Source: Actinomycetes bacterium
Lineage (GTDB): Bacteria; Actinomycetota; Acidimicrobiia; Acidimicrobiales; Bog-793
Reading direction: 5' to 3'
Length of the DNA: 62,351 bases
Assembly (NCBI GenBank): GCA_021803215.1
Contig: JAJZLV010000047.1
Location: forward strand, 300 to 62,650
Of the stretch, positions 3,145 through 37,705 are shown piece by piece (within the stretch, counting starts at the first letter, position 1; every line of letters starts with the position of its first letter). The notes beneath the pieces are model-generated. The model saw only the letters and a program-made list of their open reading frames with translations. It ran no database searches and had not been told where the DNA came from. The position numbers and the translations under genes were made by a program.

Positions 3145-4994
3145 GCCGTCCGGCAGCCTCGAAGACGGCCGACCCCTTCACCCCTCTCGCAGAGGAGCCC
3201 CGCTACGAGCCGCCGCGGGCCGGCATCGACAGCGACACCTCGAAATCCTGGCTCCGTCGGGCCATGCCGATCGTGAAGGCCCACAAGCTGAGCTTCTTTC
3301 TCGCTCTGAGCCTCTCTTTCGTCGGTCTCGTCCTGCAGGTGCAGATCCCGAACCTGTTGAACAGAGCCATCGACACCGCCATCGTCGGCCACAGGGCCCC
3401 GCTCTCGTTCTATGTCTACTGGATCCTCGCCCTCGGGGTCCTCGGGGGGATCTCCAGCTATATCTCTCGGCTCGCCATCTACAAGACGGCCTACAGCATC
3501 GAGTTCGACCTGAGGAACATCATCTACGAGCACCTGGCCAAGATGTCCTTCTCCTTCTACGACAGGGTGCAGTCCGGTCAGCTCATCTCCCGCGCCAACT
3601 CCGACATCCGCTCGGTGCAGATGTACATGACCTTCGCCCCGCTCATCCTCGTACAGTGCTCGATCGCCCTCGTGGCCTTCGCCTTCATGCTCTCTATCAA
3701 CGTGCCCCTCGCCATCGTGGCGATGCTCACGATGCCGCTCATCTACTTCGTCAGCGTGAAGATGCGCAAGTCGATGTTCCCGGTCTCCTGGATAATCCAG
3801 GCCCGCCTGGCCGACGTGGCGACCATTGTCGACGAGAACGTGAACGGGGTAAGAGTCGTCAAGTCCTTCGCGGCCGAGGACCAGCAGCTGCGGGCTCTCG
3901 CCAATGCAGCCACCCGGCTCGAGTGGAGCTATGTGAAAGACGCCGACCTGCGAGCCAGGTTCACGCCCGCGGTTCAGAACCTCTCCCAGGTCGGGCTGGT
4001 GCTGGTGCTCCTCTTCGGCGGCTACATGGTGATCCACGGCCAGCTCGGCCTCGGAGCCATCCTCGCCTTCAACGCCTACCTGCTCATGATGCAGGTGCCC
4101 TTCAACATGCTCGGGATGCTCATCATGATGAGCCAGCGCGCCGCCGCCTCGGCCGACCGCATCTACGAGATCCTCGACGAGCACTCCGAGATCGTCGACC
4201 GCCCCGGGGCGGTCGACCTCGTCGAGTGCCGGGGCGAGGTCCATTTCGAGCGGGTCGGCTTCAGCTATCCCGGCGGCGACCGCCCGCGAGTGCTCGACGG
4301 CTTCGAGCTGCGGATAGCCCCGGGCGAGACCGTGGCGATCGTCGGACGGACGGGAACCGGCAAGTCGACCGTGGCCCGGCTGCTCACGCGCTTTTACGAC
4401 GTCGACGAGGGAGCGGTCCGCATCGACGGACACGACGTGAGGGACCTCACCCTCGCGAGCCTGCGCGCCAGTGTCGGGGTCGTGCTCGACGAGCCCTTCC
4501 TCTTCTCGGTCTCGATCAGGGACAACATCGCCTACGGCCGCCCGACCGCCACGCTAGAGGAGGTCCGCCGGGCCGCCCGGGCCGCCAACGCCGAGGAGTT
4601 CATCGAGGAGCTCCCGGAAGGCTACGAGACCATCGTCGGCGAGCGTGGATACACGCTCTCGGGCGGCCAGCGGCAGCGGATCGCCATCGCCCGAGCGCTG
4701 TTGGTCAACCCGCCGATCCTCATCCTCGACGACGCCACGAGCGCCATCGACGTCCACGTCGAGCAGAAGATCCACGACGCCCTCAGCCGACTGATGGCCT
4801 CCCGCACGACTCTTGTCATCGCCCATCGCCTCTCGACCATCTCGCTGGCGGACCGGGTGGTGCTCCTCGACCGAGGACGCATCGTCGCCGACGGTACCCA
4901 CGCCGAGCTGCTCGAGAGCGATCCGCTCTACGCCGAGGTCCTCGCCAAGGCGGCCGAGGACGATCTCACGAGGAGCGAGGTGGGGCGCCTGTGA
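3141..4994 (+). CDS. ABC exporter, fused permease/ATPase (type I, MsbA-like), subunit 1
   Basis: Six-TM domain, Walker A GRTGTGKST, signature LSGGQRQR, Walker B ILILDDATS. Confidence 0.92.
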   Translation: MSRPAASKTADPFTPLAEEPRYEPPRAGIDSDTSKSWLRRAMPIVKAHKLSFFLALSLSFVGLVLQVQIPNLLNRAIDTAIVGHRAPLSFYVYWILALGVLGGISSYISRLAIYKTAYSIEFDLRNIIYEHLAKMSFSFYDRVQSGQLISRANSDIRSVQMYMTFAPLILVQCSIALVAFAFMLSINVPLAIVAMLTMPLIYFVSVKMRKSMFPVSWIIQARLADVATIVDENVNGVRVVKSFAAEDQQLRALANAATRLEWSYVKDADLRARFTPAVQNLSQVGLVLVLLFGGYMVIHGQLGLGAILAFNAYLLMMQVPFNMLGMLIMMSQRAAASADRIYEILDEHSEIVDRPGAVDLVECRGEVHFERVGFSYPGGDRPRVLDGFELRIAPGETVAIVGRTGTGKSTVARLLTRFYDVDEGAVRIDGHDVRDLTLASLRASVGVVLDEPFLFSVSIRDNIAYGRPTATLEEVRRAARAANAEEFIEELPEGYETIVGERGYTLSGGQRQRIAIARALLVNPPILILDDATSAIDVHVEQKIHDALSRLMASRTTLVIAHRLSTISLADRVVLLDRGRIVADGTHAELLESDPLYAEVLAKAAEDDLTRSEVGRL

Positions 4995-6916
4995 GCTGGG
5001 GCGGCGGCGGCATGGGCTTCGCCCCGGCGCGGGGCGGCGGCCTGCCATTCGGGGGCATTCCGAGCGAGCTGCAAGATGGCGTCGATCGCCTGCTAGCGAC
5101 AGAGCCGGAGCATCCCGAGACGACCGTCCGCTTCGAGCAGCGGCCCGAGCGTCCGCCGGCCCGGCTCAGCCTCTGGCATCTCCTCGTCGCCTATCCCCGC
5201 CTCATGGTCGTCTCGCTCGTCCTGATCGTCGTCCTCAGCCTTTCGGCCCAGGCCGGTCCATACCTGACCGAGCTCGCCATCGACCACGGAATGATCGCGG
5301 GTCACCGCAGCCTCCTCGTAGTCGGGCTGGCGGCCGCGACCTATCTGGCCAGCGTCGTGATCAGCGCCCTCGCCCAGCGCTCGCAGGTGAGGACGACCGG
5401 CCGGCTGGCAGCCGGGGTGATGAAGGACCTCCGGATACGGGTCTTCGGCCACCTGCAGCGACTATCGCTCGACTTCTTCACAGACGAGAAGGCCGGCGTC
5501 CTCATGTCACGGATGACAAGCGACATCCAGAACCTTCAGCAGCTGCTGCAAGACGGCCTCTCCCAGTTCACCCAGCAGGGGCTCACGATGATCGTCATCA
5601 CGGCGATCCTCTTTCTCATGAACGTGAAGCTGGCGCTCATCACCGTGCTGCTGATCGTCCCGGTCCTGACCGTGGCGTCCCACTGGTTCCGGGTCTCCTC
5701 CGAGCGGGCCTATCAGCGCGTGCGCGACGGGATCGCCAACGTCCTGGCGGACCTCTCCGAGAGCTTACAGGGAGTACGGGTCGTCACCTCGCACAACCGC
5801 CAGCGCCACAACGTCATCCACCACCGCAACGTCGTCGGCTCCTACCGGGACGCCAACAACCAGACGGCCCACATAAGCAGCCTCTACGGTTCGATCACCC
5901 AGCTGCTCGGCTACCTCGGCCAGGGGGCGCTGCTTGCCATCGGCGGCGACATGGTCCTCCACCACTCGCTCAGCATCGGCGCTCTCATAGCCTTCTTCTT
6001 GTACCTGAACCGCTTCTTGCAGCCGATCCAGCTACTCGTGCAGCAGTACAACACCTACCAGCAGGGGCAGGCCTCGATCATCAAGCTACGCGGCCTGCTC
6101 GAGACGAGGCCCTCGGTCGAGGAGGCAGCAGCCGCTCAGGCGCTCGGAGAGATCGAGGGGCGGATCGACTTCGAAGACGTCGTCTTCGGCTACGACCCGG
6201 AGCTGCCGGTCGTCTCGGAGGTGAACCTGACGATCCGGCCGGGCGAGACCGTCGCCTTCGTCGGCCCGACCGGAGCCGGCAAGTCCACCCTCGCAAAGCT
6301 CATCACGCGCTTTTACGACCCGGTGAGAGGCCGGGTCCTGATCGACGGGCGAGACCTCAAAGATGTGACCTTCGCGTCACTTCGCCGGCAGCTCGGCGTC
6401 GTGCCCCAGGAGCCCTTCCTCTTCGCCGGGACGGTGCGAGAGAACATCGCCTTTGCCCGACCTGACGCCTCCGATGCCGAGGTGGAAGAGGCCGTTCGGG
6501 CCGTCGGCCTGCAAGATGTGATAGCTCGCCTGCCAGCGGGCCTCGACACCGTGGTGCACGAGCGGGGCCAGTCGCTCTCCTCCGGCGAGCGCCAGCTCCT
6601 CGCCCTTGCGAGGGCCTTCCTCGCCCATCCGAGAGTGCTCGTCCTCGACGAGGCGACCTCGAATCTCGACCTCGCCTCGGAGACCAAGATCGAGGGTGCC
6701 CTCGACCTCCTGCTGCAGGGACGTACCGCCGTTCTCATCGCCCACCGGCTCTCGACCGCCATGAAGGCCGACCGGATAGTCGTCGTGGCCGAGGGTCGCA
6801 TCGTCGAGGTGGGCAGCCATGACGAGCTCGTGGCGGCCGGCGGACGCTACGCCGCGATGTACGAGACCTGGGCGAGCCAGGCGGAGGCCGAGTCGGCCGG
6901 AACCCGGCCCGACTGA
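4991..6916 (+). CDS. ABC exporter, fused permease/ATPase, subunit 2 (heterodimer partner)
   Basis: This is the in-frame tail of track ORF 3656..6916. GTG 4991 overlaps the upstream TGA (GTGA). Walker A GPTGAGKST, signature LSSGERQ, Walker B VLVLDEATS. Alternative start: ATG 5012. Confidence 0.9.
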   Translation: MSWGGGGMGFAPARGGGLPFGGIPSELQDGVDRLLATEPEHPETTVRFEQRPERPPARLSLWHLLVAYPRLMVVSLVLIVVLSLSAQAGPYLTELAIDHGMIAGHRSLLVVGLAAATYLASVVISALAQRSQVRTTGRLAAGVMKDLRIRVFGHLQRLSLDFFTDEKAGVLMSRMTSDIQNLQQLLQDGLSQFTQQGLTMIVITAILFLMNVKLALITVLLIVPVLTVASHWFRVSSERAYQRVRDGIANVLADLSESLQGVRVVTSHNRQRHNVIHHRNVVGSYRDANNQTAHISSLYGSITQLLGYLGQGALLAIGGDMVLHHSLSIGALIAFFLYLNRFLQPIQLLVQQYNTYQQGQASIIKLRGLLETRPSVEEAAAAQALGEIEGRIDFEDVVFGYDPELPVVSEVNLTIRPGETVAFVGPTGAGKSTLAKLITRFYDPVRGRVLIDGRDLKDVTFASLRRQLGVVPQEPFLFAGTVRENIAFARPDASDAEVEEAVRAVGLQDVIARLPAGLDTVVHERGQSLSSGERQLLALARAFLAHPRVLVLDEATSNLDLASETKIEGALDLLLQGRTAVLIAHRLSTAMKADRIVVVAEGRIVEVGSHDELVAAGGRYAAMYETWASQAEAESAGTRPD

Positions 6917-7488: not shown

Positions 7489-8805
7489 ATGGGCAGAACG
7501 TTCGGGCGCAACGACAAAGGCGCCGTCGGTCTCGGCGCCGCGATCGCCGGCGTCGTGCTCGTGGCGGCCGCGGCCGCCACCGGCGCGGTCGTGCTGACGA
7601 GCAACTCCCAGCCGCGTTCCGCCGCCTCTCATCCCCGCCACCCTCACCTGCCTGCTGCCAAGGCCCACGAGACCTCGTCCAATGCCGCAACCGAGAGCCA
7701 CACCCCCATCGAGGTCGTCTCTGTCACGCCGGACGCCAGCTCCGGGCCGGTCGGCTGGGCGAGCTCGGTAACCGTTCGCTACAACGAGCCGCTCGCGCAG
7801 GGGACGGTAGTGCCGACGCTCAACCCGAGCGTGCGGGGCAGCTGGCAATCGGCCGGACCCGACAGCATCGTCTTCAAGCCGATCGGCCAGTTCGTCCCCT
7901 ACGTCAAAGAGACGGTCACCGTCCCGGCCGGCACGACAGGAGCGAACGGCACGACCTTGCAGGCGCCCTACAAGGCGACTTTCACAGTGAAAGGCGGCTC
8001 GATCCTCCGGCTGCAGGAGCTCTTGGCCGAGCTCGGCTACCTGCCGCTCAACTTCACCCCGGCCGGCGGCGGCGCGCCCGCCCCGCTGAGCGGCGTGCCG
8101 ACCGCAAGTGCTCAGCTCCAGCCTTCGCCTCCGCCGGCTCCCGGCATAACCGGCACGACGGTCGTGACGGCCCCGGCCGCGGGCCCGGTGACAGACATCG
8201 AGCCCTCGTCGGCCGGTGACATCTCCCGCCAGCCTCTCGCCGGCACATTCTCGTGGCGCTTCAAGAACATCCCGCCGAGCCTCGCCAACCTCTGGCAGGC
8301 CGGTCAGCCGAACGTCATCACGACCGGGGCCATCATGACCTTCGAGGACTCCCACGGTCTGGCGGTCGACGGGCAGGCGGGACCGGAGGTCTGGACCGCC
8401 CTCCTGCAAGCCGCCGCCGCCCATGATCTCTACCGGGCGCCCTACGACTACGTCTACGTGTCGACCGGCAGCCCCGAGTACGTCACAGTCTGGAGAGACG
8501 GCGTCAACGTCTTCACGACCCTCGCCAACACGGGCATCCCCCAGTCGCCGACCCAGATCGGAACCTGGCCGGTCTACCTCCGCTACCGGGTGACGACCAT
8601 GAGCGGCACCAACCCGAACGGGACGCCCTACAGCGACCCTGGCATCCCCTGGGTGAGCTACTTCAACGGCGGCGATGCCCTGCACGGCTTCATCCGGGCC
8701 TCCTACGGCTTTCCCCAGAGCCTCGGCTGCGTCGAGATGCCCTTCTCCTCCGCCCAGACAGTCTGGCCCTACACCCCGCTCGGCACGCTCGTGACGATCC
8801 TCTAG
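7489..8805 (+). CDS. L,D-transpeptidase (YkuD domain) with N-terminal membrane anchor
   Basis: Catalytic motif HGFIRASYGFPQSLGCVEM at the C-terminus, a peptidoglycan-binding-like LQELLAELGYLPL segment and an N-terminal hydrophobic anchor. Confidence 0.88.
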   Translation: MGRTFGRNDKGAVGLGAAIAGVVLVAAAAATGAVVLTSNSQPRSAASHPRHPHLPAAKAHETSSNAATESHTPIEVVSVTPDASSGPVGWASSVTVRYNEPLAQGTVVPTLNPSVRGSWQSAGPDSIVFKPIGQFVPYVKETVTVPAGTTGANGTTLQAPYKATFTVKGGSILRLQELLAELGYLPLNFTPAGGGAPAPLSGVPTASAQLQPSPPPAPGITGTTVVTAPAAGPVTDIEPSSAGDISRQPLAGTFSWRFKNIPPSLANLWQAGQPNVITTGAIMTFEDSHGLAVDGQAGPEVWTALLQAAAAHDLYRAPYDYVYVSTGSPEYVTVWRDGVNVFTTLANTGIPQSPTQIGTWPVYLRYRVTTMSGTNPNGTPYSDPGIPWVSYFNGGDALHGFIRASYGFPQSLGCVEMPFSSAQTVWPYTPLGTLVTIL

Positions 8806-35708: not shown

Positions 35709-36050
35709 CAGATCGCCGCCGAGGGCCACCGCTCTCCGGCCGACGTCATCTACGCCGAGAACTCACCCGCCCTCGAGTATCTGCAGCGCCGACAGATGCT
35801 CTTGCATTTCCCCTCTCGCCTGCTAGCGGCCGTGCCGTCCCGCTTCTCATCCAGCCGGGGCGACTGGGTCGGTATCTCGGCCCGGGTGAGCGTCCTCGTC
35901 TCCAACACAAAGGACTTGCGGCCTTCGCAGCTTCCGAGAAAGGTGCTGCAGCTCGCCTCGCCCCGCTTTCGAGGAGAGCCCGCCATCGCGCTCACGGAGA
36001 CCGACTTCCAGCCGATCTCTCCCAGGCGCGGCACCCGAGCCGCCTCTCAG
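35709..36050 (+). pseudogene. Internal fragment of a Fe(III)-type ABC substrate-binding protein
   Basis: Frame 35709 reads QIAAEGHRSPADVIYAENSPALEYLQ...RGDWVGISARVSVLVSNTKDLRPSQLPRKVLQLASPRFRGEPAIA. It has no N-terminus, signal peptide or start codon, and begins right after the amidase TAG in the same frame. Confidence 0.7.
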
Positions 36051-36560
36051 CGGGGGTCGAGCGGGGAGCCCTTGTCATCCAGGCGCTCCCGGGCCTCGTG
36101 GTCGCGTTGGCGCTCACCTACGTGGTCGAGCGCTAGCTGAGCTTCTTCTAGCAAAGTCCCGAGCTGTTGGTGGTCGGCTCCTCGATGCTTCCTCCCGCTT
36201 GCCGTCATGGCCGTCAGGTCCTCTGTCGCGCGGGCCCCCGACTGCTCGAGGAGGCGGGCCGGAGCCTCGGTGCCGGGCTGGTCATGGTGCGCATTCATGT
36301 CACCCTTGCGCTGGTCGCCCCCGGTCTTGCAGCCGCCTTCGGCCTGGTCTTCCTGTCGGGCGTGACTGAGCTCAGCGCCACGCTCCTCCTCGTGCCCGAC
36401 AACGGCGCCACCTTGGCGACGCGACTCTGGAGCTACGTCGAGAAGGTCTCCTACGGAGCGGCCGCTCCCTGTGCCGCCACGATGGTGGCGATGTCGGCCC
36501 TCCCGGGCTGCCTGCCAAGCCGTCTGTTCGACCGCCGGGCCGAGCCTCATCTCGCCGTCG
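36051..36560 (+). pseudogene. Remnants of an ABC importer permease
   Basis: Two frames carry permease C-terminal motifs (LLEEAGRSLGAGLVMVRIHVTLALVAPGLAAAFGLVFLSGVTELSATLLLVP). Only ~170 aa remain of an expected >500, interrupted by stops at 36134-36136 and nearby. Confidence 0.65.
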
Positions 36561-36582
36561 CGGGAAGCCAGCTGCGAGCGAG

Positions 36583-37705
36583 CTGGCTCTCCGGGCCCTC
36601 TCCAAGTCATTCGGCAGGACCGAGGTCCTCCGCTCACTGGACCTCGAGGTCGAGAGCGGTGCCGTCCTCTCCTTGCTCGGCGGCTCCGGCAGCTGGAAGA
36701 GGACCCTTCTCCGCCTGGTGGCCGGAACCGAGCGCCCTGACAGCGGCGAGATAGCGCTCGGTGGTCAGGTGCTGGAGGCGCCGGCGCGGCATGTGCCGCC
36801 CGAGAAGGGGCAGATCGGCTACGTCGCCGGGCAAGGGGCGCTCTCTCCCCACCTGAGCGTCGCCCGCAACCTGGCCCTCGGGCTGAGAGGCGCCGAGCGC
36901 TGCTCGAGATGGTGAACCTCCTCGAGCTGCAGGACCGCTACCCCCACGAGCTGTCCGGGGGTCGGGCCCCGCGGATCGCCCCTTGCTCCCGCCCTCGCCC
37001 CCCGGCCCGACTCGGCCTTTGGACAAACCGTTCTCGGCCCTCGACGCCGCACTGCGCTCGAGCCTTCGCTCAGAGGTCATCCAGATCCTGAGATACGAGG
37101 GCGTGAAAACCGTTGGCAGCCCTGGGGGTATTCACTTGAGCCGACTGCCCCTGGCCACGAGGCTGGCTTGTGATGCGAAGTCCCTGGTGGCCGCCCTGCG
37201 GGTCGGGTCAGATGAATACCCCAGGGCAGCCCTCCTCGTCACCCATGACCAGGAAGAGGCCCCCTCGGTCGCCGATCTCCCCGGGGTGATGGACAACGGC
37301 CGGATCTGCCAGCTCGCTGGGCCGGAGGAGCTCTACGCACGGCCGGCCGACCCGACCATTGCACGCTTGCTCAGCGAGGCCAGCCTCCTGCGGGGAGGGG
37401 CGCACGGCCGGCTGGCGAGCACCCTGATCGGCGAGCTCTCGCTGGCCGGCGCAGCACCGGAGGGCTCGGTCGTCGTGCTCGTCCGTCCAGAGCAGCTCCT
37501 GCTCGAACCAGCCCGCCGGAGCGCCGGGAAGCCCGGGCGGGTCATCCACCGGGAGTACTTCGGCCACGACAGCCTCTATCTGGTCGCGCCCGAGGGACTG
37601 ACCGAGCCGACCCGGGCGAGGGCGGCAGGACCCGCCCTCTTCGAGGTGGGGGACGAGGTCGAGACGAGTCCGAGCGGCAAGATGCTCGCCTGGCCGGCCC
37701 CCTGA
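36583..37705 (+). pseudogene. Frameshifted ABC importer ATPase (FbpC/PotA-like with TOBE tail)
   Basis: Split over three frames (36583-36915, 36909-37091, 36983-37705). Walker A is degraded to GGSGSWKRT and Walker B to RPLDKP. There is no start codon and a ~110-bp insertion precedes LLVTHDQEEA. Confidence 0.8.
37115..37233. mobile_element. MITE-like palindromic insertion inside the ATPase pseudogene
   Basis: Inverted termini GGGGGTATTCA (37124-37134) and TGAATACCCC (37213-37222), extendable to ~22/26 matches. Flanked by the direct repeat GGCAGCCCT (37115-37123 and 37225-37233). It interrupts a normally contiguous ABC motif region. Confidence 0.45.

Follow-up and report, generated by a model that had tools for sequence, protein, structure and literature searches.

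The segment at positions 37123–37224 of the window, the 62,351-nt stretch of DNA analyzed here, is very probably a miniature inverted-repeat transposable element (MITE), a non-autonomous relative of an insertion sequence (IS) of the IS1595 family, inserted in the already decayed pseudogene of an ABC-importer ATPase. All the features that define a MITE at the sequence level were found: the size, the terminal inverted repeats (TIRs), a target-site duplication (TSD), dispersed copies, an empty site and an IS with matching ends. The window (C131:300–62650) belongs to a 2.64-Mb Acidimicrobiia MAG with 148 contigs and 69% G+C. An earlier sequence-only reading of the window had proposed a MITE-like insertion at this place, and the proposal is now supported by the copies, the empty site, the copies' own duplications and the matching IS.

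The body of the element is 102 bp long, has 65% G+C and reads TGGGGGTATTCA...TGAATACCCCAG on the forward strand; its length would be 103 bp if the preceding C (37122) were counted, i.e., with a 7-bp duplication. The octamer GGCAGCCC flanks it on the left at 37115–37122, and the repeat search found the same octamer again on the right at 37225–37232. The left TIR, GGGGTATTCACTTGAGCCGAC, was placed by the repeat search and the TIR pattern at 37125–37145 on the forward strand, and the right TIR, GGGGTATTCATCTGACCCGAC in the reverse-strand reading, at 37202–37222. The inverted arms identified by the repeat search are 21 nt long and complementary at 18 of 21 positions (86%). The strings reported by the sequence-only reading were all located where it had put them: GGGGGTATTCA at 37124–37134, TGAATACCCC at 37213–37222 and the direct repeat GGCAGCCCT at 37115–37123 and 37225–37233, the last of these recovered by the repeat search as well. 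Its arms of 26 nt, with about 22 of 26 positions matching, were correct in that the inverted repeats are real, but the outer CC/GG belongs to the target duplication and not to the element. A start of the element at GGGG was rejected, because a T on the left and an AG on the right are common to all four copies described below.

Apart from the two ≈21-nt TIRs, the MITE consists of a filler of ≈60 nt, most of it self-complementary. A 141-nt segment spanning the element folded as one long hairpin of −74.4 kcal/mol, with a z-score of −4.5 and an equally good fold in 0 of 200 shuffled sequences. When the 62-kb window was scanned with a degenerate TIR pattern covering both arms, GGGGTATTCAYYTGASCCGAC, two sites were found, one per strand, against 0.00 expected from 100 shuffles. 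There is no transposase gene in the MITE, which at 102 bp is too small for any protein family; that reading frames are nevertheless open across it is explained by the high G+C content. No Rfam family matched the element, and a scan of 36900–37500 for promoters and terminators found none.

The sequence-only reading had suggested a search for dispersed copies with different flanks. By DNA search, the genome contains three copies, all 100% identical and with unrelated flanks, and a fourth copy was found in another MAG; since these MAGs are fragmented, the copy numbers are lower bounds. In addition to the window copy, which is on the forward strand and bracketed by GGCAGCCC, there is one copy at C130:36474–36576, on the reverse strand and bracketed by GACCAGCC, and one at C72:1243–1345, likewise on the reverse strand and bracketed by CTGGACAC. 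When aligned, the three identical copies share TGGGGGTATTCA...TGAATACCCCAG. The fourth copy, also 100% identical and bracketed by GTCGACTC, is intergenic on DAHWPS010000201.1, from a distantly related Acidimicrobiaceae MAG. Genome-wide, only eight TIR sites were found, corresponding to two in each of the three MITEs and the two ends of one IS. Apart from the ends of this IS, which is on contig C146, no diverged or solo copies were detected in the genome by nhmmer or by a TIR scan allowing three mismatches. In the metagenome scan, an internal MITE 30-mer gave no matches, and the TIR pattern retrieved just one more full IS and one solo end. No MITE copy was found on the PLSDB plasmids.

The target duplication has a constant length and a different sequence at each of the four copies (GGCAGCCC, GACCAGCC, CTGGACAC and GTCGACTC). 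The sequence-only reading had described a 9-bp duplication; the direct repeat is indeed real and duplicates a single orthologous octamer, but across the copies the length is 8 bp. We rejected the 9-bp length because the ninth base (T) is a chance match, present in the window copy only. The octamers of all four copies end in C, which makes this position ambiguous, so that a 7-bp duplication with a 103-bp element starting with C would also fit. We prefer a duplication of 8 bp to one of 7 bp with an element-borne C, because 8-bp TSDs are usual for members of the IS1595 family (PMC8101967), because the full-length relative in JAJYWA010000180.1 (see below) carries an 8-bp repeat, and because each tip then lies 6 nt away from the conserved TATTCA core, which is also the spacing in the IS on C146.

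The host of the element is a pseudogene of a PotA/FbpC-type ABC-importer ATPase at 36577–37705 on the forward strand, recognized by tblastn with the intact orthologue from the congeneric genome G001. Intact orthologues without the element are present in G001 and in a family member, G009; in Pfam, the intact orthologue matches ABC_tran and TOBE_2, and the gene order of permease, ATPase and uppS is the same in the window and in G001. The sequence-only reading had noticed about 40 extra codons between ILRYEGVKTV and LLVTHDQEEA. This was borne out by tblastn of the G001 protein against the window, in which a gap of 40 residues coincided exactly with the element, and the insertion point lies between the codons of ...KTV and LLVTHDQEEA. 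The insert-free orthologues read ...AVTTLLVTHDQEEA in G001 and ...AVTTVLVTHDQEEA in G009, and in ...VVQILRRTAVTTLLVTHDQEEALSVADL... (G001) and ...ILRAEAVTTVLVTHDQEEA... (G009) TT stands directly before (L/V)LVTHDQ. In the DNA alignment, the duplicated octamer corresponds to a single CACCACCC in G001 and a single GACGACCG in G009. The comparison with orthologues, which the sequence-only reading had also recommended, thus defined the empty site, and the predicted empty-site junction in the window is ...GTTGGCAGCCC joined directly to TCCTCGTC.... For the C72 and C130 copies, DNA searches of four relatives yielded no empty sites, because those regions are not conserved in the relatives; the only matches to the two neighborhoods were the adjacent tmRNA gene, a LigD end and a toxin–antitoxin module. 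Like the window copy, the C130 and C72 copies are in dispensable DNA.

The ATPase sequence carries several lesions outside the element. Compared with the G001 orthologue by tblastn, the Walker A motif is changed from GSGKT to GSWKR; the Walker B motif is changed from DEP to DKP, the glutamate now being a lysine. There is a stop codon at 36913–36915, and the frame changes at least twice. Alignment of the joined flanks with G001 and G009 also revealed ≈10 extra bases, GAAAACCGTT, at 37105–37114 on the forward strand, which the orthologues lack. Without the element and one of the two octamers, the site retains these ≈10 bases and is still out of frame, which supports the ATPase having been dead before the insertion. 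The MITE insertion probably did not kill the ATPase, which was by then a multi-lesion pseudogene. Most likely, the insertion is later than the death of the gene, because the operon has many independent lesions, whereas the MITE copies are free of them. It is recent and probably had no phenotypic consequence. The sequence-only reading was therefore right about the location in an ABC ATPase, but its description of an interrupted gene is too strong for a pseudogene that had already decayed.

Upstream of the ATPase, tblastn with the G001 permease identified an ABC permease remnant at 36005–36541 on the forward strand. Only residues 308–487 of the permease (the last ≈180 codons) were matched, at 67% identity, and two in-frame stops interrupt the aligned stretch. 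The decay extends to the whole ABC-importer operon (35709–37705), which lies between an amidase gene and uppS, both of which have full-length open frames. The extra bases at 37105–37114 directly adjoin the MITE target on its left, and the octamer AAACCGTT also occurs at 37025–37032, in the Walker B codons.

No transposase is present in the window, as the sequence-only reading had stated, but one with matching ends lies elsewhere in the genome, on C146. The IS family with matching termini that had been proposed as a further check was accordingly found: an IS of ≈1.1 kb (about 1,115 bp) at C146:10474–11590, with one 349-codon ORF between 22-nt perfect terminal repeats. The two ends of this IS, GGGGTATTCATCTGACCCGACT, form a perfect inverted-repeat pair, and both are identical to the right end of the MITE at 22 of 22 positions and to its left repeat at 18 of 21. 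The left repeat matches the ends of the JAJYWA010000180.1-type IS at 19 of 21 positions.

The C146 transposase is uninterrupted over its 349 residues and is the sole gene of its kind in the assembly. Pfam searches matched it to Zn_ribbon_IS1595 (PF12760, 5.8e-11) and DDE_Tnp_IS1595 (PF12762, 3.5e-33, profile positions 2–153 of 153), and the NCBIfam model NF033547, "IS1595 family transposase", scored 202.5 bits (cut-off, 75). Recognizable motifs include the CPRC/CASC cysteines, VDETW, TDGW and LNEFVFRFNRR. From these matches, the C146 IS is assigned to the IS1595 family. It resembles family members such as ISRama1 and ISCsp2 in its ≈1.1-kb length, its single transposase with an N-terminal zinc ribbon and a DDE_Tnp_IS1595 domain, and its TIRs, and it fits the format of the family, in which inverted repeats enclose one transposase gene and the total length is about 0.7–1.2 kb. 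Unlike these ISs, the window element is devoid of any transposase.

No target duplication was found in the flanks of the C146 IS. The IS (locus C146:8974–11995) abuts an MFS transporter gene, of which only the first ≈115 residues are left, and its other flank is unrelated. The missing duplication and the truncated gene suggest an IS-mediated adjacent deletion, a rearrangement or recombination of one copy with another. Other assemblies contain two related full-length ISs. In JAJYWA010000180.1, the transposase is 90% identical and contains a TAG stop, and the IS is flanked by the 8-bp ACGTGGAT; on the metagenome contig Ga0209415_10146094, no flanking repeat was seen. Transposase homologues at lower identity are patchy across the family, and the plasmid relatives in PLSDB are at most 66% identical and all annotated as IS1595 family.

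The similarity between the MITE and the IS extends beyond the repeats. The left end of the MITE resembles the transposase-distal end of the IS for ≈15 nt inward past the repeat, and the right end resembles this transposase-distal end too, more weakly and with gaps. That both MITE ends resemble one and the same IS end, together with the hairpin fold, suggests that the MITE arose by foldback of one IS end. For its mobility, we envision that a full-length IS, such as the C146 copy or a close relative, would supply its zinc-ribbon/DDE transposase, which would bind both MITE ends in trans and would either excise or copy the element. Insertion would then have taken place at a cut with an 8-bp stagger, whose repair would have produced the flanking GGCAGCCC duplication; since the gene that it hit had already become a pseudogene, the insertion would have been neutral. 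This scheme assumes that the C146 transposase recognizes the left repeat of the MITE in spite of its 3 differences in 21 positions from the C146 ends. Mobilization in trans by a C146-type transposase, the order of events and any current activity are what we infer from these comparisons.

Other explanations for the segment were considered. The folding of the whole element as one long hairpin, and the intergenic position of two of the four copies, would also be seen with a REP/BIME or other hairpin repeat that spread by a non-DDE route, through a RAYT-type enzyme or recombination, its likeness to IS ends being coincidental. REPs usually occur in tens to hundreds of copies, whereas just three copies were found here, and the genome has no other TIR-like sites. 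A distinct 8-bp direct duplication at every copy and ends that are 22/22 identical to those of an IS1595-family IS likewise argue against such a repeat, which we regard as very unlikely. It is also conceivable that the copies are in-situ remnants of full-length ISs, each with its own separate internal deletion, and that the short form never transposed; this would account for the resemblance to the IS ends and for the likeness to the transposase-distal end past the repeat. All four copies, however, have the same 102-bp sequence and hence the same internal junction, which points to a single deletion or foldback, from which the short form then spread, and makes separate deletions highly improbable.

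The frame at 36983–37705 (240 codons) runs open through the element, as it would if the segment were a lineage-specific coding insertion, adding an extra loop or domain to a functional ABC ATPase. However, open frames are expected by chance at 65–69% G+C, identical DNA is found at non-coding positions elsewhere, the orthologues lack the segment, and the ATPase itself contains a stop codon and frameshifts, with both its Walker A and its Walker B motif disrupted, so that this explanation is scarcely credible. A MAG in 148 contigs could in principle contain a short repeat misplaced during assembly or binning, but the target duplication is precise at each site, the identical element occurs with its own duplication in an independent assembly, and related full-length ISs are present in two further assemblies; the probability of such an artefact is consequently close to nil. 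With the segment read as a MITE of an IS1595-family IS, the 40 "extra codons" of the ATPase are mobile DNA in a pseudogene rather than a novel domain, and the 240-codon ORF across the element should not be annotated as a gene.

Classical MITEs, such as the Correia elements of Neisseria and those of the IS630/Tc1 type, are ≈100–150 bp long, have 2-bp TA duplications and are present in tens to hundreds of copies. The window element is like them in its length class of ≈100–150 bp, its TIRs, its target duplication, its hairpin potential and its insertion in or near genes; unlike them, it has an 8-bp duplication, three copies and an identifiable IS1595-type partner. The eukaryotic counterpart of the IS1595 family is Merlin. 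Closer to the present element is an IS1595-related MITE of Haloquadratum walsbyi, related to ISHwa6, which has 25-nt inverted repeats and 8-bp direct repeats (PMC3852290, Table 4). Both are short, non-coding IS1595 derivatives with TIRs of ≈20–25 nt, 8-bp repeats and low copy numbers (seven there, three here). The two differ, as compared by description, in that the H. walsbyi MITE is archaeal and 165 bp long, whereas the present element is 102 bp long, comes from an actinobacterial (Acidimicrobiia) host and consists almost wholly of a single foldback hairpin. MITEs that derive from IS1595-type elements and have 8-bp repeats are thus already known, and the present element is one more example and implies no new mechanism. 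It provides a cleanly delimited MITE/IS pair in the Acidimicrobiia, an actinobacterial class that is poorly represented in culture and known chiefly through MAGs; the pair can be used for annotating other copies and as a strain-level or horizontal-transfer marker.

The copy on DAHWPS010000201.1 raises the question of horizontal spread, since the same 102 bp occur without a single substitution in a divergent MAG in which no cognate transposase was detected. Proteins neighboring the MITE in that MAG are only 39–48% identical to their best matches in the present genome. The identical element is compatible with recent horizontal spread, and equally with mis-binning of the 6-kb contig or with an incomplete assembly. 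That the MITE is active now and recently crossed between distantly related Acidimicrobiia lineages, presumably on a plasmid or phage and ahead of or without its autonomous partner, is a possibility that we consider doubtful. On the same contig, at about 5400–6048, there is a tRNA-like stretch followed by a putative phage-type integrase ORF at the contig end, near which an integrative element may start. The MITE is 5 kb from the putative integrase and adjoins an ORF resembling an AbiEii-type nucleotidyltransferase.

The surroundings of the two other copies in the genome were also inspected. At the C72 locus (C72:1–2845), the MITE is ≈190 nt 5′ of a tmRNA gene at 700–1052 on the reverse strand (Rfam RF00023, 142.9 bits). 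The tmRNA is 78–90% identical in relatives, and the DNA past it, the MITE included, is not conserved. The C130 copy (locus C130:34973–38077, about 1081–2300) adjoins an apparent fragment of an ECF sigma factor with region 4 only, and is ≈75 nt upstream of what, read by eye, is a putative module of a Phd-type antitoxin and a PIN/VapC toxin. This putative module has 87% DNA identity to one in G005, a genome from another genus, which suggests that the module may itself be mobile.

Two single matches to the 21-nt terminal repeat were observed outside the genome. One, at 7957–7977 of JAWKLL010000001.1 (a Saprospiraceae MAG), may be due to chance. The other, at 3984–4004 of Ga0080006_1124355, leads into a sequence similar to the beginning of a C146-type transposase gene, and probably represents another copy of the IS with a diverged far end.
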